Part shown: positions 15,706 to 29,812 of the stretch, piece after piece
How positions within the stretch are numbered: position 1 is the stretch's first letter
Layout: each line of letters begins with the position of its first letter
Origin: a virus
Taxonomy: Duplodnaviria > Heunggongvirae > Uroviricota > Caudoviricetes
Virus record (IMG/VR): IMGVR_UViG_2563366848_000003
Strand: one strand, 5' to 3'
Length of the DNA stretch: 35,269 nucleotides
Program-made: the position numbers and the translations under genes
The notes under the pieces: generated by a model
What the model saw: the letters and a program-made list of their open reading frames with translations, nothing else
The model's database searches: none
Told to the model about the DNA's origin: nothing

Positions 15706-17595
15706 TTAATCGTGTTTTGGCCATACTTTCAATGCAATTTCCCCCAACTTTTTACCCCGCTCCAGGATTTCATCCTCATCCCATTTATCCTTAACTATAA
15801 GTGGAATGTTCAGTCGTAGATTGGTGTGGACGATGAGAGCATCACGTTTTTTCAGAAATACAGCATTCTGAACAGAACGGTTTACGCTAAGGTTAAGCAA
15901 AGTTAGATTTCCCAACGTAGCTATCGCTTGTTGCCGTTTCCTTACCAGTAGCTGTTCTGGGGTAAGATCGGTTCCAGACAGAACAATTTGGTTCAATACC
16001 GTAGCATCTGAATTTGTCACCATATGACCATTTTCGAGAGGCCAACAGGAATACCAACTTTGAGGCATAAGATGATCGATATCGAGGTTAGAAAGATTTG
16101 GAACATCAGGCTTCTCTGTCTTCACTTGGCGACAAAGTTCTCTTTCAAGTTCCGTTAACATTGAGCGCATTTTCGGTGCGTCGAGCCTGCCAGGATAAAG
16201 TGGAGCATTGATGCAAGCGTTGAGAAATTCTGAGTCCCCAGGCCAACGTGAGGCTTCGCCATTTAAGCTATTGAGGATATTACGTAACTCAACACTGGAA
16301 ATTTCTGTTTTAGACAAGTGCCGCAATACATTCATAAATACATTGTTGTAATTCTTTGGCGTCAGGCCACATACGGCTCTTCGTACTACGTAGGAGACAA
16401 GATCATTATACATGGCTGCTTTCTCATCATCGGCGATGTTAGCTATCGAAATGAACAAAGCAAGCGGATAAAGTGTCGTCACATCATAGGCTGCGATGCG
16501 ATGTCCAAAGTGTGAGATGGGGGTTGTGCCAAAACCACCAACCAATTCTTTATATTGTGATGCATATTGTTTGAGGCGCTTTACTTGCAGATCTGCTCGT
16601 TGTGAAGGCAAGTCCTTACTTACATAATCACGATACTCATTGTAAAGACGAGACAGATCGATTTCACGTTGCCTTTCTGATTGCAATGTTGCATGCACTA
16701 GCCACTCCATGCGTGGTTTATTAATACGACCACGACGTTGTCTTTCTGACCAGTACGTATCTTCAAAGATCTTCCACTCATTCTCATATAATTCAACAGC
16801 ATTAATATTTTCATGTTCAGCGCACATAAAAATATAATTGCGAATAAGATCTGTGGCATGAAGTTCCGCACCTCTGCCATTTAATGTTTCAAAAATTATT
16901 TGAGCGTCATCTTCAGCCTCGAGAAATATGCTTACTAGTTTCAGATCCGTCAAGACAGCCTCAATTAATGCTACAGCATTTTCTCGTGGTGAGTGATTTT
17001 CTATTTTAATCCACTTTATAAAGGCTTCAGTAAAAAAACATAATGCTTCTAGTGATGGCGGGTGATTAAAATGCTTACGCAACGTACCATGCTGCGTGAA
17101 ACTATCAGAGAATACATTCCGGATATCGTCAATATTTTCAACATTAAAACTTTGAATAAAATGAGTTTGATCCCGAAAAGTTGGCCACAGTTTGAAGCGC
17201 TCTACTTCTTTATTTCGCATTGTGTCTTCGTTTGAGTTTTTCAGGCAAGACGAAATGAGAGGCTCTAAGTTGGAAAGATCTGTCGCACGTAATGCTAATC
17301 GGATGGATGCCAGAACATATTGAAGAGTGGTCAATCGTTGCTGACCATCAATAATATGTATGGAATCTACACCGAATAATCCTTTTTTTGGTTGAGGTTC
17401 CAGTACCACTGCACCAAGGAAATGGGGAGTTGGTTTTGTACCCGAGAGCCGGGATTGTGCTTTCTCTAGGATATCCTCCAGTAGAGCTGACCATTGGTTT
17501 CGCTGAGTCCATACATAGGCACGTTGATAGAATGGAACACAGTATTGTCGGCGGTCTTGAAAAAGTTGTTGGACAGTTAGCGTCTCGGATTTCAT
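15706..17595 (-). CDS. DUF262 (ParB-like NTPase, DGQQR) + DUF1524 (His-Me finger nuclease) protein; GmrSD-family putative type IV restriction endonuclease
   Basis: N-terminal motifs PFYQRAYVWT and IIDGQQRLTTL; C-terminal LDIDHLMPQS...N; about 630 aa. Start chosen at the ATG (17595) preceded by AGG, giving MKSETLTVQQLF...; an upstream in-frame ATG at 17655 has no SD. AT-rich relative to the flanking phage genes. Confidence 0.8.
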   Translation of the reverse strand: MKSETLTVQQLFQDRRQYCVPFYQRAYVWTQRNQWSALLEDILEKAQSRLSGTKPTPHFLGAVVLEPQPKKGLFGVDSIHIIDGQQRLTTLQYVLASIRLALRATDLSNLEPLISSCLKNSNEDTMRNKEVERFKLWPTFRDQTHFIQSFNVENIDDIRNVFSDSFTQHGTLRKHFNHPPSLEALCFFTEAFIKWIKIENHSPRENAVALIEAVLTDLKLVSIFLEAEDDAQIIFETLNGRGAELHATDLIRNYIFMCAEHENINAVELYENEWKIFEDTYWSERQRRGRINKPRMEWLVHATLQSERQREIDLSRLYNEYRDYVSKDLPSQRADLQVKRLKQYASQYKELVGGFGTTPISHFGHRIAAYDVTTLYPLALFISIANIADDEKAAMYNDLVSYVVRRAVCGLTPKNYNNVFMNVLRHLSKTEISSVELRNILNSLNGEASRWPGDSEFLNACINAPLYPGRLDAPKMRSMLTELERELCRQVKTEKPDVPNLSNLDIDHLMPQSWYSCWPLENGHMVTNSDATVLNQIVLSGTDLTPEQLLVRKRQQAIATLGNLTLLNLSVNRSVQNAVFLKKRDALIVHTNLRLNIPLIVKDKWDEDEILERGKKLGEIALKVWPKHD

Positions 17596-18065
17596 GGTAT
17601 ACCTGTAAGCGACATTGTACAAAAGTGAGGAGTTAATCTGATTTAGAACAATCATTTTATGTTGCTATGATACAACGTATTTGTTACCGGTTAAGTAAAA
17701 AACGCGTCTGAACGCTGACGTTTTAGGGCTTTACTAGTTATTCTTTCTTATCTCTTCATCATCCCATCGGCATCCTGTCGAGGTTGTTGACTTGTTGTTA
17801 TTTATTTTGTTTAGGCGCTGTTTAATTATTATTGATGGGACTGGTGGTGAGAGGTGATTGAAACCGCAGACAGGTCGTATGCAAGACGTGCTGCGGTTGG
17901 CTGATGCACTTTTGATAGTGCAAGTATTGAATGATTGCCAGTCACAGCGGATTGTACTTAGGTAATATGACGGTTCAAGGCGTTTAAACTGAAACCATCC
18001 ACATATCAGTCTCTTCAAACATTTCCTAAATCGTTCGGCTTATCTGTTCTTTCTCACGTTTGCTG

Positions 18066-18525: not shown

Positions 18526-19191
18526 TTAATTGTCTAAGCTGGTATAATATGAATAAAGGCTTTTTCCCATTATTTTCTCTAAATCCTTTTTGTTTCTAAA
18601 GAAAATGTTTGAGATATGCTGATGATAATACTTTATAATGATTCTCATCAGCGCCGATACTACTTCATGAAGTTTTTTCACCATTTTATGCTGTGTTGAA
18701 TTACAATCTCCCTCCATAAGTGATATAAATGTTGATGTAACATTTAGGTTCGCTTGGGGGGAGGAGTGAACATAATAACAGGCGTTGATATAGACATTAT
18801 GTAAATAAGACCAGCCTTCATCGACTTGTTGGGCTTTTAAGAAGTCAAAGTCTCTACGACGTACAGTTTGGTCAAAATCCCCACCATTGTAGTTCTTATT
18901 GAGGCTTATTCTGGCCACATGCTCCACCATTGAGCGGAAGTTCAGTTGGAGATACCGTTCTCTTTTTTTTATAATGGCAATTAAGGAGTTTAAGGTATCA
19001 TATATAAAACCTTTTATATAAGAAGAGTGATTTAGATTAGGATTGTGACTTAAAATTGTATTACAAAGACTTATTTGCCTAAATATTGATACTGATTTGT
19101 TTATTTCATCAGTGGTTCTGAGGTGCTTTTGCACCTCCGCTCTAAAATAATTTACATCTCTTCCAATGTTGAAGGGATCCTGCGTGAGCAT
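18526..19191 (-). CDS. hypothetical protein (221 aa), third gene of the ParA-like operon
   Basis: AT-rich ORF; its start overlaps the stop of the upstream 132-aa gene (translational coupling). No family recognised by eye. Confidence 0.6.
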   Translation of the reverse strand: MLTQDPFNIGRDVNYFRAEVQKHLRTTDEINKSVSIFRQISLCNTILSHNPNLNHSSYIKGFIYDTLNSLIAIIKKRERYLQLNFRSMVEHVARISLNKNYNGGDFDQTVRRRDFDFLKAQQVDEGWSYLHNVYINACYYVHSSPQANLNVTSTFISLMEGDCNSTQHKMVKKLHEVVSALMRIIIKYYHQHISNIFFRNKKDLEKIMGKSLYSYYTSLDN

Positions 19192-19589
19192 TATTCTTCT
19201 TCCTTTTTATTTGCATTAATCCAAATATTTAAATTCCTTATAGCATGCTTGCTTTTAGATGTGGATTTTTGGCTTGTTTTATTTGCATCATTAAAAATAA
19301 TGTCTAATGTGTTAATGTTGTTTAAGAAATGCGTATAAGCCATCTTTATGTCATTCTCACTTAATTCATTAATATGTCTGCAAATTTTAGCGCACATCAA
19401 AGTTCTTGACCGTACAGCATAATTCAAAAAAGATATTTTGAAGGTTTTGTTAATAAATTTACTAACATCAAAATTTGATCTAAAAACCTCTTTTGAAAGA
19501 ATCAACATAATTACCAAGCCTAAGAAGTTTTCTTTGGTCATGGGCATATTATTAGCTTTATTGAGCGCTTTAATTAATTGTTTATTCAT
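19191..19589 (-). CDS. hypothetical small protein (132 aa), second gene of the ParA-like operon
   Basis: Start overlaps the ParA-like gene 3' end by 8 nt; Lys/Asn-rich; no family recognised. Could be a small centromere-binding or adaptor protein. Confidence 0.5.
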   Translation of the reverse strand: MNKQLIKALNKANNMPMTKENFLGLVIMLILSKEVFRSNFDVSKFINKTFKISFLNYAVRSRTLMCAKICRHINELSENDIKMAYTHFLNNINTLDIIFNDANKTSQKSTSKSKHAIRNLNIWINANKKEEE

Positions 19590-20427
19590 TTGTGTTACCT
19601 TCCAAGTGAGCCACTCTGTTAATAAATTCGTTACAGATCTTTTCTATATCTTGGCGTGACTTTGAATAACAAGAAGGAATATTTCCTTGATAACCTACCA
19701 TTAAATCACGCACGTAGGTTAATTGATTTTCAAAGAAATAAAAATTTGTAAATTGAGTATGGTTTTCGAATTGTTCTTTAATTTCCCTTGTTTTATTGGT
19801 CATTTCAGCATCAGTGTTTGTATAAATGTAACCGACTTGCTTGATTTCTTTCTCATGATGTGTGCGCATATTTCTTATAACGCTATTTAAACTGCTTGCT
19901 CCAAGCACCGAGTAGTGATCAATTTTAACCGGAGTAAGATAATAATCAGAAGCAAGGAGTGCGGTATCTGTAAATAATGAGATTGTTGGGGGGCTATCGA
20001 TAAAGATATAGTCGTAACTTTCTTTTAAGTCATTTTCGGTGATGAATTTACGCAACATTTTTATTCTAATACCCTCTTGGTTAGTATCAAAGATAATGTT
20101 TATATCACCTAAGATAATATCAAGATTGTCTGAAACTTTAGTAATGACCTGTTCTGGTGTCACTTTCTTTTCATCTTCCATTAATGAATTTGGAAGCTCA
20201 AAAATCTTTCGAATGGTTTGATTATTAGGGCGAAGGGCAGTCATATATTCTTCTACTCGATCATAATGCCCCATTAAGGACTGAGTGGCATTAAATTGAG
20301 GATCAATATCGATAACTAGAACCTTGCGCCCCATATGGTTGGCTAAAAACTCAGCAATCCCAACGCATAAAGTTGTTTTACCAACCCCACCTTTCATATT
20401 GATAAAACTAATTACTGGTGCAGTCAT
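19582..20427 (-). CDS. ParA/MinD-family P-loop ATPase (deviant Walker A)
   Basis: N-terminal FINMKGGVGKTTLCVGIAEFLA (KGGxGKT deviant Walker A), VIDIDPQ and downstream DSPP motifs typical of ParA/Soj; SD AAGGA 6-8 nt upstream of the ATG at 20427. Confidence 0.8.
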   Translation of the reverse strand: MTAPVISFINMKGGVGKTTLCVGIAEFLANHMGRKVLVIDIDPQFNATQSLMGHYDRVEEYMTALRPNNQTIRKIFELPNSLMEDEKKVTPEQVITKVSDNLDIILGDINIIFDTNQEGIRIKMLRKFITENDLKESYDYIFIDSPPTISLFTDTALLASDYYLTPVKIDHYSVLGASSLNSVIRNMRTHHEKEIKQVGYIYTNTDAEMTNKTREIKEQFENHTQFTNFYFFENQLTYVRDLMVGYQGNIPSCYSKSRQDIEKICNEFINRVAHLEGNTNE

Positions 20428-20465: not shown

Positions 20466-21175
20466 TATGCTGAAAGCATTTTTTAGCTTAATTTTTATAC
20501 TGCGCGTTGACTTATCACCCTATCATATATGATTTTTAGGTGTTGCATAGACTGGTTTTATATCAGGGGCTTAGGTTGTATGTGGCGTCACAGAATCACT
20601 AATCATTGAACTTTGTACATGTAACAGTCCGGTTAAATAATATATAATGGGTTGTTAAGTTGGCTCTCTGATTCCTGATGCCCCAAGGACGCGCGTCATT
20701 GCGTGCCAGATTAACTTTTCGTCGGGCACAGTGCTATCGGCAATTATTTCCTCAGCCTCTTTCCCGCATAGGTCTTGGCGCATCCATTTTCTTGCTATGA
20801 AATCTCCAGCCGGTCAGACTGAAAGTATAGAAGAGAATATGCGAATCGCTGTTCCGGTGTTTCTGGGAGAGCTTATGTCGGAGTAATTCCCCGGTAATTG
20901 AATCTCTTTTGCTCGCTCATAACAGACATTCACTACAGTTATGGTAGAAAGTATGTATGCTGATTGGGGAAAGTGTGAAAGAAAAGAAGACTGCTGCGCT
21001 GTTTGTCGTCACGTTTATCTTCATTGGCTATGCAAGTCATAATACAAGGTGGGACAAAACTGAGACACATAAGGCCTCACAATGGCTTGCAAGGCTTTAC
21101 ATGTTTTGATGTGGTGGGACGTGTGAGCACAGTGTTGATGGGGTAATACTTTGAATTAGAAGCGGATTCTTATAA

Positions 21176-21220
21176 TTCGTAATGCGAAGGTCGTAGGTTC
21201 GACTCCTATTATCGGCACCA
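21176..21220 (+). other. 45-bp 3' fragment of tRNA-Thr(CGU) (thrW-like): attachment-site remnant
   Basis: attcgtaatgcgaaggtcgtaggttcgactcctattatcggcacca contains the anticodon loop (CGT), T-arm GGTTCGACTCC and the 3' acceptor with CCA, but the preceding 30 nt do not form the D-arm or 5' acceptor, so it is not a complete tRNA gene. Confidence 0.75.
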
Positions 21221-21383: not shown

Positions 21384-22553
21384 ATGCCTTTAAACGATAT
21401 GCAGATTCGTCGCGCTAAGCCTGAAGAGAAACCCTATACGCTTGGGGATGGTCAAGGCTTGTCATTACTTATAGAACCTAATGGGAGCAAGAGCTGGCGG
21501 TTTCGCTATCGCTATGCCGGTAAACCCAAAATGATCTCGCTTGGTGTTTACCCAACGATCACCCTTGCCGATGCTCGTTCCCGTCGTGACGAAGCCCGCA
21601 AATTGGTCGCCGAAGGAAAGAATCCGAGTGAGGTTCGAAAAGAGCAGAAGATTGCTTTGCAAACCGAGTCTGAAAGCGCGTTCGAAAAGATAGCGACAGA
21701 GTGGCACCAGATGAAATCTGCCAAATGGTCGGCCGGTTATGCATCAGACATCATGGAAGCTTTTCAGAACGATATTTTCCCTTATGTAGGTAAAAGGCCA
21801 ATTGGCGAAATAAAACCGCTAGAATTGCTTAATGTGCTGCGTAAAATTGAAAAACGAGGTGCGTTGGAGAAAATGCGGAAAGTGCGACAGCGTTGCTCGG
21901 AGGTTTTCCGTTATGCCATTGCTACAGGTAGAGCCGAGTTTAATCCTGCGGCAGATCTCTCAAGTGCCCTCGAAGTGCATCAATCCAATCATTTCCCGTT
22001 CCTTAAAGCTGATGAGTTACCTGATTTTTTGCGTGCTCTAGACAGTTACACAGGGAGTCGGCTTGTCCTTATTGCTACGAAGTTACTGATGATTACGGGC
22101 GTAAGAACCATTGAATTACGTGCAGCTTTATGGTCGGAATTTGATCTGGATAACGCTATTTGGGAAATACCAGCAGAAAGGATGAAAATGCGTAGGGCAC
22201 ACCTTGTGCCACTATCGACTCAAGCGTTAGATTTACTTAATGAACTCAAAGCGATGACAGGAAACTACCGTTATGTTTTTCCTGGACGAAATGATCCGAA
22301 TAAGCCAATGAGTGAGGCAAGTGTAAACCAAGTAATCAAACGCATTGGCTTTGGTGGCAAGGTTACAGGGCACGGATTCAGACATTCAATGTCTACTATT
22401 TTGCATGAGCAAGGATTTGAATCGAGTTGGATAGAGATGCAATTAGCTCATGTTGATAAAAACAGTATCCGAGGCACTTATAACCATGCTCAGTATTTTG
22501 ATAAACGCAGAGTTATGATGCAGTGGTATGCTGATTATGTACAGGGGAAATAA
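21384..22553 (+). CDS. int: P4-type tyrosine integrase
   Basis: 389-aa ORF with the P4-type N-terminal domain (IRRAKPEEKPYTLGDGQGLSLLIEPNGSKSWRFRYRYAGKPK) and a C-terminal catalytic domain (HGFRHSMSTILHEQGF ... HVDKNSIRGTYNHAQY); lies 164 bp downstream of the tRNA fragment. Confidence 0.95.
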   Translation: MPLNDMQIRRAKPEEKPYTLGDGQGLSLLIEPNGSKSWRFRYRYAGKPKMISLGVYPTITLADARSRRDEARKLVAEGKNPSEVRKEQKIALQTESESAFEKIATEWHQMKSAKWSAGYASDIMEAFQNDIFPYVGKRPIGEIKPLELLNVLRKIEKRGALEKMRKVRQRCSEVFRYAIATGRAEFNPAADLSSALEVHQSNHFPFLKADELPDFLRALDSYTGSRLVLIATKLLMITGVRTIELRAALWSEFDLDNAIWEIPAERMKMRRAHLVPLSTQALDLLNELKAMTGNYRYVFPGRNDPNKPMSEASVNQVIKRIGFGGKVTGHGFRHSMSTILHEQGFESSWIEMQLAHVDKNSIRGTYNHAQYFDKRRVMMQWYADYVQGK

Positions 22554-24053
22554 ATGCAAACTTCGAGAGCTATTAATAAAAATGTCGGGGGAAATGACTC
22601 TGAAAAATATCTTTCTAAGCTGTGTGAAAGAACTTTTTTAAGCTTGTGGAGTTATCCAAATGTTTATACTGATGAAGGAAAAAAAACGGCGTCGGGAGAT
22701 GGGAAGGAACTCTGTGATCTTCTAGTTGTATTTGAAAATCATGTCATAATATTTTCCGATAAAGATATTTCGTTTAAGGATTCAGGGGATTTAAAAGTTG
22801 ATTGGGGGCGTTGGGTTAAAAGGGCTGTTATTAAATCCGCAGTTCAACTTTATGGTGCCGAGTCATCATTAAAAGAGAGACCCGGTAGGTTATTTCTTGA
22901 TGCTAAGTGTAATGTCCCTTTTCCAATTAAAGTGCCAAAGTGTGACGAAATTATCGTTCACCGAATTGCTGTTGCAAAGAATGCATCAAAAAAATTCCAA
23001 GAGCATTCTGGCGGTTCTGGGAGTTTGATTATATGTCCGCGCATAGTGGGAAACCAACATTTTGATACTCCGTTTATGATCGGTCAGCCCATTGCTGACA
23101 AGCCTTATGTGCATGTTTTTGATGATATTGCTTTAGATATTATACTTTCTGAACTCGATACAATTGCTGATTTTATAGATTATCTTAGTAAGAAGGAAGA
23201 ATTTATTGCTTCAGGAGGACTAAACTCGGCAGCGGGAGAGGAAGAACTTTTAGCATGGTACTATATAAATGCTAAAGATGGGCGTGAGCCGGGGTTTTAT
23301 ATAGAGAAAGGAGTATCAGCTTTGATTGTTGAGGGGGCCTATGAATCTCTTAAAAACCTTCCTCAGTTTATTAGAGGGAAAGAACTAAATTCTAATTCTT
23401 ATTTTTGGGATGCCTGTATAGAAAATTTTGCGAAACATATGCTTAGTGGGACAATATTGTCCGAAGGGGATTTTTCATTTGATGAGATGACTCGTGGTCT
23501 AAGAATTATGGCATCCGAGACGAGATTTTCAAGGCGTATACTATCAAATGCAATAATTGAAAAAGTCACCTCCATCCCTCATGGGCAAAGAGGTGTTAGA
23601 GTTTTGGTCTCTCCCAGTAACAGCGATAATGGGTATGTTTGGCTAGTGGTTCCGGTGCCAGAATGTTGCACATCATATGATGACTATAGAAAATATCGTA
23701 AAGATACTCTCTCTGTTTACTGTGCTTCAGCAAAGCTACTTTTCCCGGATATGAAATATATAGTTGGAGTTGCCACAGAACCGATGGGGGGGAATGGAGG
23801 GGAAGATATGGTGTTTATTGATTCAACTCAGTGGACAGAGGATGACTACGAAAGAGCTCGAAAAGATAGAGATGAATTTAAAGCTTTACTTCCGGATAAT
23901 ATTAAAAGAACTGATGATCACGATTATCAATTCCCTATTCTTCCTGGAGACTATCCTGAAAAAGAAACTTTAAGGGTTGAAAAGAATAGTAAGGCTAGAA
24001 TAAAACGAATTAAAAAGGCGCAAAAAAAAGCCCGTAGAAATAACAGAAAATGA
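22554..24053 (+). CDS. hypothetical protein (499 aa), cargo at the integrase-proximal position; possible nuclease-like N-terminal region, basic C-terminal tail
   Basis: ATG immediately follows the int stop (TAAATG) with SD AGGGGA; AT-rich. N-terminal segment ELCDLLVVFENHVIIFSDKD is loosely reminiscent of a PD-(D/E)xK core (unverified); C-terminus KNSKARIKRIKKAQKKARRNNRK is highly basic. Confidence 0.7.
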   Translation: MQTSRAINKNVGGNDSEKYLSKLCERTFLSLWSYPNVYTDEGKKTASGDGKELCDLLVVFENHVIIFSDKDISFKDSGDLKVDWGRWVKRAVIKSAVQLYGAESSLKERPGRLFLDAKCNVPFPIKVPKCDEIIVHRIAVAKNASKKFQEHSGGSGSLIICPRIVGNQHFDTPFMIGQPIADKPYVHVFDDIALDIILSELDTIADFIDYLSKKEEFIASGGLNSAAGEEELLAWYYINAKDGREPGFYIEKGVSALIVEGAYESLKNLPQFIRGKELNSNSYFWDACIENFAKHMLSGTILSEGDFSFDEMTRGLRIMASETRFSRRILSNAIIEKVTSIPHGQRGVRVLVSPSNSDNGYVWLVVPVPECCTSYDDYRKYRKDTLSVYCASAKLLFPDMKYIVGVATEPMGGNGGEDMVFIDSTQWTEDDYERARKDRDEFKALLPDNIKRTDDHDYQFPILPGDYPEKETLRVEKNSKARIKRIKKAQKKARRNNRK

Positions 24054-24091
24054 GTTATGATCAAATCAAGGGCCTTTTTAAGGCCTTTGAA

Positions 24092-24874
24092 TCAATCTTT
24101 GGCGTGTGATTTAAATTTAAATGATATTTTTCTCTTGGTATTTCTTAAGGATTTTGAAATTCGCCATTTTAAATTGAATAAAGTATCCAATAGCTTTTCT
24201 GAGTTCTGCTTATTTAGTAGTCTGTGTTCTTGTCTTATCATAAGGAATATTTCAAGGTATGGGTCGTCAATTTTTTCTTCCAGTTCTTCACAAGAGTAGC
24301 TGTTGACACGTTCAAGAGCGATATATTCCATCCTTATCTCATTTGGTTCCCTTAAACTTGTTTTTTCCCATTCTAATCTAATTGGCTTACTAAAAAGGGA
24401 TATGTTCTCCTTAATATGTGCCATAACACGTCTAAAACGATTGTTAAATTCTTCATTATCAGTATGCATAACTGGTGATTGATTTCCTAATAATGTTGAA
24501 CTTTTTTCTCTTTGGAATTTGTAATATTCCTCTGATACTTTTTTGCTAAAGCTGGCTTGATCTGATTTATTCTTGAAGCTTATATGTTCATAACTATCCG
24601 GACCATATATTTGTTCCATCCAGTGCAACTGACTAAATTGATTGACGGCTTGTTCTAAATCTTTATCTTCTGATGTGTATGTTTTCTGTGATTTTATTTT
24701 GTAGTCGAAAAGTAGTAAGTCGCAAACATCGAAGTAGATTTTGTCATAAGTTCTTAGACGTTCTATTTTTCTATTGTATTTTGACTGGCGAATGGTATTT
24801 AAAAATCCTAGGCAGGATATGATAAAACCACCTATAGAAATATATAAAGAAATTGAAGTGTTATCCTGCACCAA
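24092..24874 (-). CDS. hypothetical membrane-anchored protein (260 aa) with an N-terminal transmembrane helix
   Basis: N-terminus MVQDNTSISLYISIGGFIISCLGFLNTI is a predicted TM helix followed by a charged domain of unknown function. Convergent with the 499-aa gene (38-bp gap); AT-rich. Confidence 0.65.
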   Translation of the reverse strand: MVQDNTSISLYISIGGFIISCLGFLNTIRQSKYNRKIERLRTYDKIYFDVCDLLLFDYKIKSQKTYTSEDKDLEQAVNQFSQLHWMEQIYGPDSYEHISFKNKSDQASFSKKVSEEYYKFQREKSSTLLGNQSPVMHTDNEEFNNRFRRVMAHIKENISLFSKPIRLEWEKTSLREPNEIRMEYIALERVNSYSCEELEEKIDDPYLEIFLMIRQEHRLLNKQNSEKLLDTLFNLKWRISKSLRNTKRKISFKFKSHAKD

Positions 24875-24980
24875 CTTTCTCCCCTCTGAAAAATAGAATT
24901 CTTAAACCTAAAATTAATTGCATCTTCGGATAAGCTTTTCTATCTCAAAAAATTTAAATGGTCAACTATATTGGTGCGCA

Positions 24981-24999
24981 ATGCTCTCCCCGCCACGCC
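24981..24999 (-). other. P2/P4-type cos-like site
   Basis: Reverse complement GGCGTGGCGGGGAGAGCAT matches the P2/P4 19-nt cohesive end GGCGAGGCGGGGAAAGCAC (recalled from memory) at 16 of 19 positions; located between the integrase-side cargo and psu, where cos sits in integrated P4. Confidence 0.5.
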
Positions 25000-25646: not shown

Positions 25647-25922
25647 TCAGACAGGAATTTGCTGGCGGTTTGAGAGCCTGGAGGCTGCGCCATATTTTCC
25701 GAGTGTGTGAGCTGACTTCTCTGATTGCTCGCTTGCGGTTTCATCCTTGGTCTCAACCTTGTTAGGCCGGGCAATAATCGTGTCCACGCTCTCCAGTGCG
25801 GTGAATGTGCATGAGCACTCCAGGTTTTTGCACTGATAGTAAGTCCGCTTTATGGATGGGGCCTCATAAAAGCTTGAACGGGCATGTGAGATTGCGCCGC
25901 ACTCAGGACACTGTAAAGCCAT
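25647..25922 (-). CDS. Ogr/Delta-family zinc-finger late transcription activator
   Basis: MALQCPECGAISHARSSFYEAPSIKRTYYQCKNLECSCTFTALESV has the Ogr/Delta C-x2-C-x22-C-x4-C arrangement; start at 25922 with SD GGAGGA 6 nt upstream (the tabulated ORF begins 5 codons earlier). Confidence 0.85.
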   Translation of the reverse strand: MALQCPECGAISHARSSFYEAPSIKRTYYQCKNLECSCTFTALESVDTIIARPNKVETKDETASEQSEKSAHTLGKYGAASRLSNRQQIPV

Positions 25923-26475
25923 AGGCTTCCTCCGCAAGTTTCAGGCGCTTGAGCCTGTCCTGAAAAGTTTTATGCTTCGCCGGAGTGAATCTCTTCGAGG
26001 CATCCATGCGCATTGATGCATCAGGCGATAAACCTGATTCATCAAGGATTTCACGGCAGGACTCAAGCAGTTCTGGAGCATTGAGTTCCGAATAATGCGC
26101 CAGCGCCAAACGCAGCACACGTGCAGCAACATCAAGGCCAAAGGGGCCGTTCAGATAAGGTGCCAGCGCTGAGGTCAGCGCCTTGCCCGAATTTGCCATA
26201 AATTCACTCAAGGCATTATCAACACAGGCATCCACGACACTTCTCTGCGCGTAGAGACCATCATTTGCCGCACAGCTGATCTGCCATTCAAGCACTTCTA
26301 GCTTTTCTCTGAGAGTTTCAACCTGCCAGGCATAATTGTAAGGCTTATCTGCAGACAGCAACAATGCCTGCAGCCGTAGTTGGGCTGTACTTTGCTCGTT
26401 GCGAAGTGATAGCCAGCTCTGAGAAGCATCCCGGTAGTGATGCAGCGCTTCCTTAGGGGTAATTGTGGTGTCCAT
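25903..26475 (-). CDS. psu: Psu-like protein (polarity suppression / capsid decoration homologue)
   Basis: 190 aa, the same length as P4 Psu; recalled similarity in the C-terminal half (ALTSALAP..., KRFTPAKHKTF vs P4 ALAAALAP..., EKFTPAQNMIF). Confidence 0.65.
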   Translation of the reverse strand: MDTTITPKEALHHYRDASQSWLSLRNEQSTAQLRLQALLLSADKPYNYAWQVETLREKLEVLEWQISCAANDGLYAQRSVVDACVDNALSEFMANSGKALTSALAPYLNGPFGLDVAARVLRLALAHYSELNAPELLESCREILDESGLSPDASMRMDASKRFTPAKHKTFQDRLKRLKLAEEAYGFTVS

Positions 26476-26569: not shown

Positions 26570-27319
26570 TCACTGATCTCCTTCGGTCAACGGAGATTGT
26601 ATTTTCCGCATTGATTCTCCTTTAAGTTCGATCTTGATACTGCCATGAACCAGTCGATCTAGGATGGCATCCGCATGTGTGGAGTCTCCGATCATTTTGT
26701 ACCAGTTTTCCACCGGCAACTGGCTCACTACGATGATTGAGCCTCGTTGGTACATCAGATCCACTATTTCCAGCAGGTCGCTACGCTGTTCTGATGAGAG
26801 AGGTTCCAGCCCCCAGTCATCCAGAAGCAGCAGATCGCTATTATTCAGCCTGGTCAAAAGTTTGCTGTATCTTCCATCAGCATGCCCCTGATAGCACTGT
26901 TCCATCAGCGCTTTAAGGCGATAATAGTAGACCTTGTATCCCTGTCGGCAGGCATTATGACCAAGTGCACATGCCAGGAACGTTTTACCGCTGCCGGTGG
27001 CCCCGGTCAGTAAAATATTTTGTTTCAGGGTTAACCAGTTTCCCTGACTGAGTGAACGGATGAGGGCCCTGTCCAGCCCTCTATTGTTACGATAATCCAG
27101 CTTTGATAACTCAGCATTAAGTCTGAACCGTGCATGTTTGATCAGACGCTCTGCCTTCCTGTTTTCACGGCAGGTTAGTTCTTCTGCTGTCAGTAATGAC
27201 AGGCGTTCTTCGAAGCCCAGCTCCTGGTATGTGCCCGGCTGAGCAAGTTGCTTTTTAAGCGCATCACGGAAGCCGGTGAGTTTAAGTGCGGTCAGTTGTT
27301 CGTAAAGATGATTCATCAT
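26570..27319 (-). CDS. istB: IS21-family transposition helper ATPase IstB
   Basis: 249 aa with Walker A GATGSGKT and Walker B LLLLDDWG, IstB/DnaC-like. Confidence 0.93.
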   Translation of the reverse strand: MMNHLYEQLTALKLTGFRDALKKQLAQPGTYQELGFEERLSLLTAEELTCRENRKAERLIKHARFRLNAELSKLDYRNNRGLDRALIRSLSQGNWLTLKQNILLTGATGSGKTFLACALGHNACRQGYKVYYYRLKALMEQCYQGHADGRYSKLLTRLNNSDLLLLDDWGLEPLSSEQRSDLLEIVDLMYQRGSIIVVSQLPVENWYKMIGDSTHADAILDRLVHGSIKIELKGESMRKIQSPLTEGDQ

Positions 27320-27330
27320 TGGATCCCGTA

Positions 27331-28872
27331 TCAGTGGTAATACTCACTGCCGCGTACGTTTTCGTGTTCCATCGTGGATAACAGATCTGGTTTTGGATCC
27401 TGAACAGGTTGTTTATCCAGACCTTTTTCCAGGATCGATTTAATACCTGACAGACGCCATACCTTTGTTTTCAGAGCTCTTGCACATGCTGCATTAAGTC
27501 TGGCTTTACTGTATTTTTTATGAAGGTTCAGGAGTCCAAGGCAGAAGCGATAGCTTTGTTCCGGATGTGGACGAGAGTTCAGTATATGAAGCACATAACT
27601 ATGAGTTTCACTGCCTATGTGCCCCGCCCATTCCAGAAGACGCTCTGGCGTCCAGGTGGCATGCTGTCGATGAGCTTCAGGCATGTGCTCGTTGCGGGTA
27701 CTGTAGCCATAAGTACGCTTGCGCGGGTGCACAGCAACCTCCTGCCCCTGATTGAAGAGTCTTACCAGTTCTCCGGAGATCCATGCTTCCAGTTGCTGGC
27801 CTAACAGCGAACATGGAACCGAGTAGTAATGTTTGTCGATTTCCACGTGGTAATCGGCATGAACTCTGACTTTCTTCACCAGGGTGTAACTGTAACTGGC
27901 TTCAGGAAGAGGCTTCAGTGCGGGTTTATCAAGCTGGATGAAGAGTTCTGCACGTGAATAACCCAACTTCTGCATTATTTTGTTATTCAGTCTTTCCAGC
28001 AACTCCCGAATGCGCTGATTAAGCGATGCAAGGCTGTAGAAGATCTCATGCCTGATTCGGGCCATGATCCAGCGTTCAACAACCTGAACGCCAACTTCAG
28101 CTTTGGCTTTATCTTTCGGTTTACGTGGCCGCGCAGGCAAAACTGCGACATTATAATGCTCAAGCATCTGCTGGTAGGTAGGGTTAACGTCAGGATCATA
28201 CTTACATGCCCTGGATGTGGCGCTTTTCAGATTGTCCGGAACAACAAGTTCAGGAACGCCACCCAACCACTGGAAGCAGCGAACATGACTCATCACCCAG
28301 TCTTCAAGCTGCTGAGACCAGGTGGCCTCTGCCCATGTGTAACTTGATGCCCCGAGAACAGCTACGATGACCTGAGCAGTTCTTATTTCTCCGGTCTCAG
28401 GGTCGGTAACGCCAACGGTAGGTCCACAGTAATCAACGAAAAGTTTTTCGCCAGCTTTATGTACCTGACGCATTGATGGTGAAGTGGTTTTGAGCCATTC
28501 ACGGTACATCCGGCAGTAATGGTTATAGCTGTAAAAACCGCCTGGATTACGCTCACAGTATTCTTCCCAGAGTAGCTGCAGCGTCACGCATTTATTACGC
28601 AGTTCCCGGTGTACTGTAGCCCAGTCAGGCAGAGAGTGCTTCTTCATCTTAACCTGGGTCTGAAGGAACGCATGTTTTAGTTTTGTATCATCCCATCCTG
28701 TAGGTAAGGGCCACTGCTTTATGCCAAGTTGAGCCGCCCGATTAGCATATCTGGATACAACGGAAGGGGAGATTGCAAGACTACGACCAATTTGTCGATG
28801 GCTGAGTCCAACACCGTATTTAAGCCTAAGAATTTCTTTAAGTTTTCTCATAGAAATTGGAACTGTTGGCAT
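27331..28872 (-). CDS. istA: IS21-family transposase IstA
   Basis: 513 aa with an N-terminal HTH (LKYGVGLSHRQIGRSLAISPSVVSRY) and a DDE core; located 11 nt upstream of istB. Confidence 0.93.
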   Translation of the reverse strand: MPTVPISMRKLKEILRLKYGVGLSHRQIGRSLAISPSVVSRYANRAAQLGIKQWPLPTGWDDTKLKHAFLQTQVKMKKHSLPDWATVHRELRNKCVTLQLLWEEYCERNPGGFYSYNHYCRMYREWLKTTSPSMRQVHKAGEKLFVDYCGPTVGVTDPETGEIRTAQVIVAVLGASSYTWAEATWSQQLEDWVMSHVRCFQWLGGVPELVVPDNLKSATSRACKYDPDVNPTYQQMLEHYNVAVLPARPRKPKDKAKAEVGVQVVERWIMARIRHEIFYSLASLNQRIRELLERLNNKIMQKLGYSRAELFIQLDKPALKPLPEASYSYTLVKKVRVHADYHVEIDKHYYSVPCSLLGQQLEAWISGELVRLFNQGQEVAVHPRKRTYGYSTRNEHMPEAHRQHATWTPERLLEWAGHIGSETHSYVLHILNSRPHPEQSYRFCLGLLNLHKKYSKARLNAACARALKTKVWRLSGIKSILEKGLDKQPVQDPKPDLLSTMEHENVRGSEYYH

Positions 28873-29050: not shown

Positions 29051-29812
29051 TCATGAAAATACGCAGCTTTGCCCCTTCTTCGCTTTTTCACGCTGTTTTT
29101 GTATGCGGATTTGCGCCGCCGGGCTGGGGGCGTTCTGAATATCCTGATAGGCACTATTATCAGCAAGTACACCAATTTTATTCAGGAAAGGGTCACTCTG
29201 CAGAGAGGCATTCTGTTTCAACGCCGGATTAGTGATTGAAGAAGTAATGAAATCCCGCAATAGCGTTTCAGGATCATTCACAGAATGGACAACACCAATT
29301 ACAGAGCTGGCACTTCTCCCTTTTGTCACTTTGAGAAGGCTTAAAAGCTGGATAAGGGTTTGACCATGCTGCTTCATAAAATCATGCCAAAGCTGGTTAA
29401 CATGGGTTTCGATAAGATTATCATGTGCCTGAATGTAACCACGGGCCAGTTCCGCCGTTTTCCATGGGAGATACTCATTCTCTCCGGCATGGGCCGCAAG
29501 CAGATCATCAAACTCGTCGAGTGTTTCACGCCCCAGGGCAATCTCAGCCCTTAGTTTTTTCATTTTCGGCGTTACCTGTCCCTGGTTTTCATGAAACATC
29601 TGACGCCATTCTTCATTTTGCGCCTTTGCCTCCGTTTCCGTTTCTACACGGCGTTTACGGATTGTTGCGAGCATCGCAGCAGCATCAATTTGTTTGCGAC
29701 GGGCTTCCGTCCAGGCTGATTTGGCAGCATTCACTTTTTCAAGCGCCTGTTGTGTCGCAGCAGGGATAGAAATATCAGCAGTCGATTTATTGCTCTGGTC
29801 TGGGATAGTCAT
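29051..29812 (-). CDS. sid: Sid-like capsid size determination protein, C-terminus altered by the IS21 insertion
   Basis: N-terminus MTIPDQSNKSTADISIPAATQQALEKVNAAKSAW resembles P4 Sid; about 250 aa, coiled-coil rich. The last 4 codons and stop (CVFS*) are read from the IS end. Confidence 0.6.
   Translation of the reverse strand: MTIPDQSNKSTADISIPAATQQALEKVNAAKSAWTEARRKQIDAAAMLATIRKRRVETETEAKAQNEEWRQMFHENQGQVTPKMKKLRAEIALGRETLDEFDDLLAAHAGENEYLPWKTAELARGYIQAHDNLIETHVNQLWHDFMKQHGQTLIQLLSLLKVTKGRSASSVIGVVHSVNDPETLLRDFITSSITNPALKQNASLQSDPFLNKIGVLADNSAYQDIQNAPSPAAQIRIQKQREKAKKGQSCVFS

Follow-up and report, generated by a model that had tools for sequence, protein, structure and literature searches.

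When the cargo slot of a P4-like satellite holds two unrelated genes side by side, do they make up one anti-phage system or two? This question is raised by positions 22554-24874 of a 35,269-nucleotide stretch of viral DNA (IMG/VR record IMGVR_UViG_2563366848_000003, classified in the Caudoviricetes), which is referred to here, at its full length, as the window. Two open reading frames (ORFs), designated ORF-A and ORF-B, lie there between a P4-type integrase gene (int) and the cos/psu region (Table 1). A first-pass annotation had interpreted them as an undescribed sensor-effector or abortive-infection pair, with two independent single-gene systems given as the fallback. The ORF coordinates and sizes in that annotation, together with the ORF-A start abutting the int stop, were confirmed in the sequence. 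Between its two interpretations, it is the fallback that the evidence favours: we read the 2.3-kb stretch as two functionally independent cargo genes, each of which most probably acts against phages by itself (probability about 0.55).

Independence is favoured because the genes are convergent, because their phyletic distributions are separable, because one family is about 100 times the size of the other (more than 3,000 ORF-A proteins versus 39 ORF-B clusters) and because recognised defence hotspots harbour each of them on its own. ORF-A occurs without ORF-B in Yersinia, Phytobacter, E. coli H10, Cronobacter, Halomonas, lambdoid prophages and 80 diverse genomes, and ORF-B occurs without ORF-A in every P2-like context examined. 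When co-occurrence was checked, as had been suggested for the proposed pair, the two genes were found together only in close relatives (82-100% identity) within one int lineage.

The P4 psu-int and P2 gpA-gpQ intervals, both adjacent to cos, are experimentally supported anti-phage hotspots (Rousset et al. 2022, PMC9122126), and the psu-int interval is a reservoir of anti-phage systems (PMC9122126; bioRxiv 10.64898/2026.02.27.708500). Six of eight randomly picked unknown cargos of the P4 hotspot were protective (Moura de Sousa et al., bioRxiv 2026, 10.64898/2026.02.27.708500), and pseudogenised or inactive cargo is rare in the P4/P2 hotspots (10.64898/2026.02.27.708500). The window cargo occupies the same psu-int slot next to cos as P4 gop-beta-cII and other P4/P2 hotspot cargos (PARIS, retrons, old/tin, and TIR plus transmembrane (TM) systems; PMC9122126). 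Like them it is AT-rich and rapidly swapped, and its theme of an enzyme with a TM protein recurs among them (PMC9122126). The earlier observation that the cargo is AT-richer than its flanks was borne out: G+C content is 0.379 for ORF-A and 0.317 for ORF-B versus 0.448 for int, 0.511 for psu and 0.522 for alpha, and G+C at third codon positions is 0.28 and 0.29, respectively, versus 0.41-0.52 in the comparison genes.

Neither ORF-A nor ORF-B has a match in Pfam, PADLOC or NCBIfam (PADLOC 2.0 returned 0 families at E <= 1), and neither was matched in the GenBank phage collection (tblastn). Homology to Gop, Beta or CII, which the first-pass annotation had named as refuting a defence module, was looked for, and the gop/beta/cII models in PADLOC 2.0 matched neither protein.

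ORF-A and the Bandua system

Bandua (construct pFD422) is a P4-hotspot locus composed of "Unknown 4A", a putative NERD/PDDEXK nuclease, and "Unknown 4B", a Ser/Thr kinase (10.64898/2026.02.27.708500). It protects against Drexlerviridae and siphoviruses, and pFD422 (4A plus 4B) reduces plating of Bas02, Bas04, Bas09, Bas11 and Bas18 by 10^3 to 10^5 (10.64898/2026.02.27.708500). The reference used here was the synthesised sequence from Dataset E1 of that preprint, which was translated to give 4A (497 aa) and the 4B kinase (365 aa). ORF-A is 56.8% identical to 4A over 481 aa (blastp, E = 0) and is, as judged from sequence, a member of the described Bandua-4A family without the kinase partner, so the label "undescribed" no longer applies to it. 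The two proteins are alike in length (497-499 aa), in having a Lys/Arg tail and in a start that abuts or overlaps the int stop of a P4-like satellite. Bandua carries the 4B kinase between 4A and cos, whereas the window has the unrelated and convergent ORF-B in that slot. A search of the window for a 4B-type Ser/Thr kinase gave none (tblastn of 4B returned only noise at E > 1), and ORF-B has no Pkinase match in Pfam.

Copies with the Bandua layout (int-A-kinase-cos/psu) were found in P4-like elements of E. coli H10 and Phytobacter at the tRNA-Sec gene, whereas the window satellite is at thrW. The kinase is 85% identical between the Bandua construct and Phytobacter, and the arrangement of A followed by a 365-aa kinase, as in E. 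coli H10, is also found in Cronobacter islands without P4 context. In P4-like elements of Yersinia, int-A is accompanied by no other cargo, and in one int-plus-A remnant it is followed by chromosomal genes. From one P4-like lineage to another, the identities of int and A fall together (95% for int alongside 95% for A; 63-65% for int alongside 58-71% for A), and the int stop and A start always abut or overlap. Due to both properties, int-A looks from these comparisons like an old linked pair, and the recent acquisition proposed earlier is doubtful for ORF-A. The truly variable slot is the one between A and cos, which is empty or holds either the kinase or ORF-B. Because the ATG of ORF-A directly follows the TAA of int (GGGAAATAAATGCAA), ORF-A is probably co-transcribed with int.

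The A family comprises more than 3,000 proteins with lengths of about 500 aa, from Proteobacteria, Chloroflexi, Cyanobacteria, Acidobacteria, Bacteroidetes, Firmicutes, the candidate phyla radiation and one archaeal metagenome-assembled genome. Neighbours were surveyed at 80 A-family loci from GTDB species genomes of many phyla (78 analysable) by all-versus-all clustering and a Pfam scan of the flanks. No conserved partner was obtained from the 80 loci, with the largest neighbour cluster occurring in 3 loci only and 142 flanking proteins carrying 132 different Pfam families. An ORF-B homologue was beside A at 0 of 80 loci. Kinases were near A at 2 of 80; both are distant (24-27% identical to 4B) and start ∼1.3-1.9 kb downstream of A. 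Given that the survey yielded no recurrent neighbour, no ORF-B and only two distant kinases, the A family is basically stand-alone. Members also occur alone on a Halomonas chromosome and, in a moron slot of a lambdoid prophage, between RusA and Q. In a lambdoid prophage of E. coli 210205630 (locus L101, NZ_CP015912.1 497277-509551), an A protein of the SEC-C type is encoded between replication gene P and DinI/RusA. Its immediate neighbours there are a "restriction endonuclease" and a "HEPN domain-containing protein", and the region looks like a small defence cluster in a NinR-type moron region.

The earlier description of ORF-A as a soluble protein with a very basic C-terminal tail agrees with the absence of a hydrophobic segment (maximum Kyte-Doolittle 19-residue mean, KD19, of 1.06) and with 15 Lys or Arg residues among the last 35. 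An AlphaFold 2 (AF2) model (predicted local distance difference test score, pLDDT, 90.2; predicted template modelling score, pTM, 0.88) divides the protein into a PD-(D/E)XK-fold domain (residues ∼10-130), an alpha/beta region (∼130-460) and a Lys/Arg-rich C-terminal helix (471-498). The modelled N-terminal domain contains the alpha-beta-beta-beta-alpha-beta core of the PD-(D/E)XK nuclease superfamily. On this model the N-terminus has a nuclease fold of that type, as had been supposed when it was called possibly nuclease-like.

An alignment of 51 sequences (∼40% identical to ORF-A) was used to identify conserved positions. Residues E52, D55, S68, D69 and K70 are invariant, and a near-invariant N-terminal block reads GKELCDLLVVFxNHVIIFSDKD. 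The resulting signature, D55 ... S68-D69-K70, has an invariant Ser where an acid is expected, two residues before the Lys. Such an SxK signature resembles the variant of the Cfr10I/NgoMIV group, in which the site is completed by an acid from elsewhere. When ORF-A was compared with the PD-(D/E)XK domains of N.BspD6I/R.BspD6I, the FokI cleavage domain, Can2/Card1, Shedu SduA and Hna, sequence identity was only 9-15%, and ORF-A differs from PD-(D/E)XK nucleases in the Ser of the motif and in ∼330 extra residues without an assigned fold. Comparison with PDB sequences gave only noise, and other nuclease models in Pfam matched none of the 51 family members. A match was obtained to phrog_18195 (8e-80), an unannotated PHROGs family.

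A SEC-C tail (PF02810) is present in 19 of the 51 aligned relatives, the alternative C-terminus being a Lys/Arg-rich stretch. In ORF-A the SEC-C zinc knuckle (C-terminal CxC...C(H/C)) is absent and the Lys/Arg-rich helix is in its place. Some relatives match the PADLOC models E2 and PDC-S12 (18-19 of 51, the same number as have the SEC-C tail); judged by these member counts alone, the matches were attributed to the tail and not to the core. Rugutis, a lactococcal single-gene system of 359 aa, also has a SEC-C motif, but at the N-terminus, and shows no other similarity according to its authors (PMC11381338). Its activity shows that a single SEC-C-bearing protein can be anti-phage (PMC11381338).

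From these features we infer that ORF-A would be a soluble sensor-nuclease in which a phage cue is sensed by the large C-terminal region. Its Lys/Arg tail (a SEC-C knuckle in many relatives) would tether it to a polyanion, the simplest candidate being nucleic acid, and the PD-(D/E)XK-type site (D55 ... S68-x-K70, with E52, E17 or E103 as a possible third acid) would cut DNA and thereby stop the infection.

ORF-B and the cos site

The likelier start of ORF-B is a GTG at 24871 (259 aa, MQDNT...), as indicated by its homologues and by the RefSeq annotation of the identical locus in E. coli B379. Its convergent orientation was confirmed, as was the single N-terminal TM helix noted earlier (a hydrophobic helix at residues 6-24, KD19 = 1.91). 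The flank after this helix has a net charge of +5, and for this reason the C-terminal domain should be cytoplasmic. The AF2 model is all-alpha (pLDDT 80.8) with a basic C-terminal tail. Structure prediction, which had been suggested as a check on both proteins, thus yielded a recognisable fold for ORF-A (PD-(D/E)XK) and no meaningful fold match for ORF-B. The protein has no PDB sequence match, and neither it nor its distant family members match Pfam. Invariant in the family are V76, S132-P133 and D203-P204. Assignment as a HEPN RNase, a class marked by a conserved Rx4-6H motif in a four-helix bundle, was considered and rejected, since the Rx6H motif of ORF-B is not conserved in the family.

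The GC-rich hairpin between the convergent stop codons (GGCCTTAAAAAGGCC, from a consensus scan) is a likely bidirectional terminator; this assignment should be considered only suggestive, because terminator-like sites in the region are no commoner than in shuffles. A candidate sigma-70 promoter just downstream of cos was read by eye and possibly drives ORF-B. The site is also kept in L005, the P4-like copy of K. pneumoniae, and a consensus promoter scan made no call at these positions (24937-24965).

A word-indexed search returned 20 clusters of ORF-B homologues, all from Enterobacterales, and a full profile search with a hidden Markov model returned only 39 clusters among 1.84 billion representatives; by these searches the family is an orphan. 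Homologues with 82-91% identity are in the same int-A-B cassette. Those with 47-58% identity are elsewhere. In P2-like prophages of Klebsiella and relatives (50-58% identity) the gene stands by itself between cos and gpQ, the portal gene, and others are in degraded P2 remnants, one with HicB, B and a truncated portal gene and another being an Erwinia islet. The only fusion seen in the family is a metagenomic protein of 618 aa (P0151), in which a B-like domain (residues 371-615, including the TM segment) stands behind an N-terminal region of ∼370 residues with a signal-peptide-like start and a sub-threshold TPR match.

The cos core of the window (GGCGTGGCGGGGAGAGCAT) has three mismatches to the 19-mer GGCGAGGCGGGGAAAGCAC (chance expectation 0.01), which we take to be the P2/P4 cos. 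In the Bandua fragment, the reverse complement of GGCGAGGCGGGGAAAGCAC is found right after the kinase gene. A Klebsiella P2-like prophage (L002) has a cos-like site ahead of its ORF-B homologue, and the window core departs from that site at 1 nt. In P2-like and P4-like elements alike, cos lies upstream of B and is oriented in the same way. With this matching arrangement in both element types, ORF-B is a cos-proximal cargo common to helper-type phages and satellites. The sharing is of some interest because P2 and P4 are reported almost never to have defence genes in common (10.64898/2026.02.27.708500).

ORF-B is transcribed away from cos and encodes a membrane-anchored helical protein without a catalytic signature. 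Its site of action would be the inner membrane, where it would either bar the entry of DNA (superinfection exclusion) or serve in its own right as an abortive-infection effector. Inner-membrane proteins for superinfection exclusion and abortive infection are a generic class in prophages. ORF-B is likewise small, single-pass, borne on prophages or satellites and located in a defence hotspot. The likeness is one of analogy, as no sequence or fold similarity between ORF-B and characterised proteins of the class is detectable.

Competing explanations

Several points weigh against reading the cargo as two independent anti-phage genes. This reading is least certain in supposing that 4A-type proteins may protect in the absence of a kinase. 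Bandua was tested only as 4A plus 4B; its protection could come from the kinase alone, in which case ORF-A is left without functional support. The preprint authors mark Bandua "colocalization unsure" and give the kinase an "Stk2 signature" (10.64898/2026.02.27.708500), so either gene may be the protective one; "DS-23", the signature given to 4A in the preprint, led to nothing relevant in the literature searched. A is found together with the kinase in several settings, so a partner may improve its action or be required for it. Catalysis by ORF-A is no more than putative, as the canonical acid of (D/E)xK is a serine (S68). Pfam NERD (PF08378) matched neither ORF-A at E <= 1 nor any of the 51 family members at E <= 0.1; the preprint gives NERD/PDDEXK among the Pfam domains of 4A (10.64898/2026.02.27.708500). 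The co-divergence of int and A would also fit a role for A in the satellite's own biology. The invariant residues of ORF-B look structural, and its homology is uninformative. Note also that the A-plus-B cassette of the window is not among the synthesised constructs of the preprint, as compared by exact k-mers (UnknownSys1-3 and 7-8 were not translated for distant ORF-B homologues).

The best-surviving alternative takes Bandua to be an obligate nuclease-plus-kinase system. ORF-A would then be a non-functional or repurposed leftover whose kinase has given way to unrelated cargo, and defence would come from ORF-B alone or not at all. The only functional data for the family do derive from the 4A-plus-4B construct, and A and kinase are kept together in the Bandua construct, Phytobacter, E. 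coli H10 and the Cronobacter islands. A leftover is nevertheless unlikely, given that ORF-A is intact and retains all family-invariant residues, that most of the family lacks a kinase (the exceptions in the survey being the two loci with distant kinases), that A is the sole cargo in Yersinia P4-like elements and that inactive or pseudogenised hotspot cargo is rare (10.64898/2026.02.27.708500).

Ranked behind it, and improbable in our estimate, is a pair of genes with no anti-phage role: ORF-A as an integrase-linked accessory, and ORF-B as a cos-proximal moron that serves the life cycle of helper and satellite (packaging, lysis timing, membrane or lysogenic conversion). Such roles would suit the co-divergence of int and A with their ever-abutting or overlapping stop and start, the position of B immediately beside cos in all P2-like and P4-like elements and the lack of homology to known defence proteins (PADLOC). 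They suit less well a family whose members are mostly far from integrases and include one in a lambdoid moron slot beside restriction and HEPN genes, and they are at odds with the hotspot context and the Bandua phenotype. B is still present in degraded P2 remnants whose packaging genes are gone, which fits a host-beneficial function of B better than packaging.

Least probable of the three is the sensor-effector or abortive-infection pair first proposed, in which one protein senses and the other executes: adjacency in a hotspot whose cargos are often multi-gene (PMC9122126), a cassette that stays intact in E. coli, Klebsiella and metagenomic contigs down to ∼86% (A) and ∼83% (B) identity, and validated P4 systems that combine an enzyme with a TM protein (Rousset et al., PMC9122126) speak for it, but the two convergent genes are set apart by a hairpin, ORF-A and ORF-B are each present singly in several independent settings, their families are ∼100-fold apart in size, no B was found at the 80 A loci, and co-occurrence in one int lineage is what simple linkage predicts.

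The satellite, its surroundings and implications

The element was identified as a P4-like satellite, with cargo in the int-proximal psu-int slot at thrW as the first-pass annotation had proposed, from the presence of int, psu, delta, sid, alpha, C4 RNA, a cos-like site and a tRNA fragment, with the cargo between int and cos/psu. The satellite encodes a Sid-like protein, Ash and an alpha primase, as well as the C4 antisense RNA and isrK. Its integrase corresponds to WP_001619162.1 in the annotation of E. coli B379.

Table 1. Positions of features in the window, with strand and basis of assignment.
Feature	Position	Strand	Remarks
tRNA-Thr(CGT) (thrW) 3' fragment	21175..21220	+	46 nt; att-site copy, int-side border of the satellite
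int	21384..22553	+	389 aa; P4-type tyrosine integrase; Pfam Arm-DNA-bind_3, Phage_int_M and Phage_integrase matches
ORF-A	22554..24053	+	499 aa; homologue of Bandua "Unknown 4A"
GC-rich hairpin	24071..24085		Between the convergent ORF-A and ORF-B stop codons
ORF-B	24092..24874	-	260 aa from TTG 24874; convergent to ORF-A
Candidate sigma-70 promoter for ORF-B	24937..24965	-	TTGACC, 17-nt spacer, TAGAAA
cos core	24981..24999	-	ORF-B directly downstream, same orientation
Ogr/Delta-like zinc-finger gene	25647-25937	-	Pfam Ogr_Delta 4e-16
psu	25903-26475	-	Pfam Psu 2e-38; with the Ogr/Delta-like gene, the other hotspot border (25647..26475)

The thrW fragment is identical to the 3' part of a full tRNA-Thr(CGT) beside a 95%-identical int in K. 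pneumoniae (L005); no complete tRNA was found in the window (ARAGORN). Because only these 3' 46 nt of thrW are present on the int side, and because the DNA upstream (1-21000) belongs to another mobile element (tail genes, GmrSD), the arrangement suggests tandem integrations at thrW.

On the other side of the cargo, the Ogr/Delta-like ORF is downstream of psu and overlaps the psu 3' end by 35 nt (25903-25937), a placement out of line with that in the other P4-like loci examined. An IS21-family element (26570-28872) lies between the Sid-like gene (29051-29812) and psu, interrupting the sid-psu region. Its ORFs (513 aa and 249 aa) resemble IstA and IstB on inspection, and the element probably breaks the satellite late operon. 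The window order is thus sid-[IS]-psu-delta, versus sid-delta-psu in two other loci (L005 and L100).

The int-A-B cassette was found in 1 of 5,426 complete E. coli genomes (B379, at an identical locus). In B379 another element is upstream of the same int-A-B block, and the block is cut off downstream by IS26 and a resistance region (TEM-1, mer, sul3, qacL, aadA1, cmlA1).

Two further loci of the window lie outside the satellite. Downstream of the tail genes (15706-17655, minus strand) is a gene for a GmrSD-type type IV (modification-dependent) restriction enzyme of 649 aa, which matches Pfam GmrSD_N and GmrSD_C and, over its full length, PADLOC mREase_IV (1439 bits). Directly upstream of the thrW fragment is a very AT-rich block (G+C 0.28-0.36; 18526-20427, minus strand) of three genes with overlapping stops and starts. 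These encode a ParA/AAA_31 ATPase (281 aa) with a weak match to PADLOC PDC-M28B (2e-6) and ORFs of 132 and 221 aa without a Pfam or PADLOC match; the block may be another unannotated defence or partition-like module.

As for what the cargo adds, the hotspot is already known, as is the A family as part of Bandua. New are the occurrence of A without its kinase but next to an orphan membrane protein, and the cos-adjacent position of ORF-B shared by P2 and P4. If ORF-A protects alone, the nuclease-like half of Bandua is an independent defence gene, and thousands of unannotated "∼500-aa SEC-C/hypothetical" proteins across phyla gain a function. Autonomy of 4A-type proteins would likewise mean that a very large pan-bacterial family (more than 3,000 members, with SEC-C or basic tails) has been missed by current defence finders. 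It is doubtful that the fullest version holds in both its parts, with 4A-type proteins being autonomous single-gene nucleases for which the kinase is dispensable and ORF-B being a new exclusion or abortive-infection gene that has moved between P2 and P4 via cos. Otherwise, the locus is one more case of an already well-documented hotspot.

If ORF-B did move via cos, the only sequence that P2 and P4 share, it would be a rare exception to the near absence of cargo exchange between them, and a possible test case for cos-mediated recombination moving defence genes between a helper and its parasite. The natural series of A alone, A plus kinase and A plus ORF-B within the same integrase clade provides a ready-made dissection of the roles of these components.

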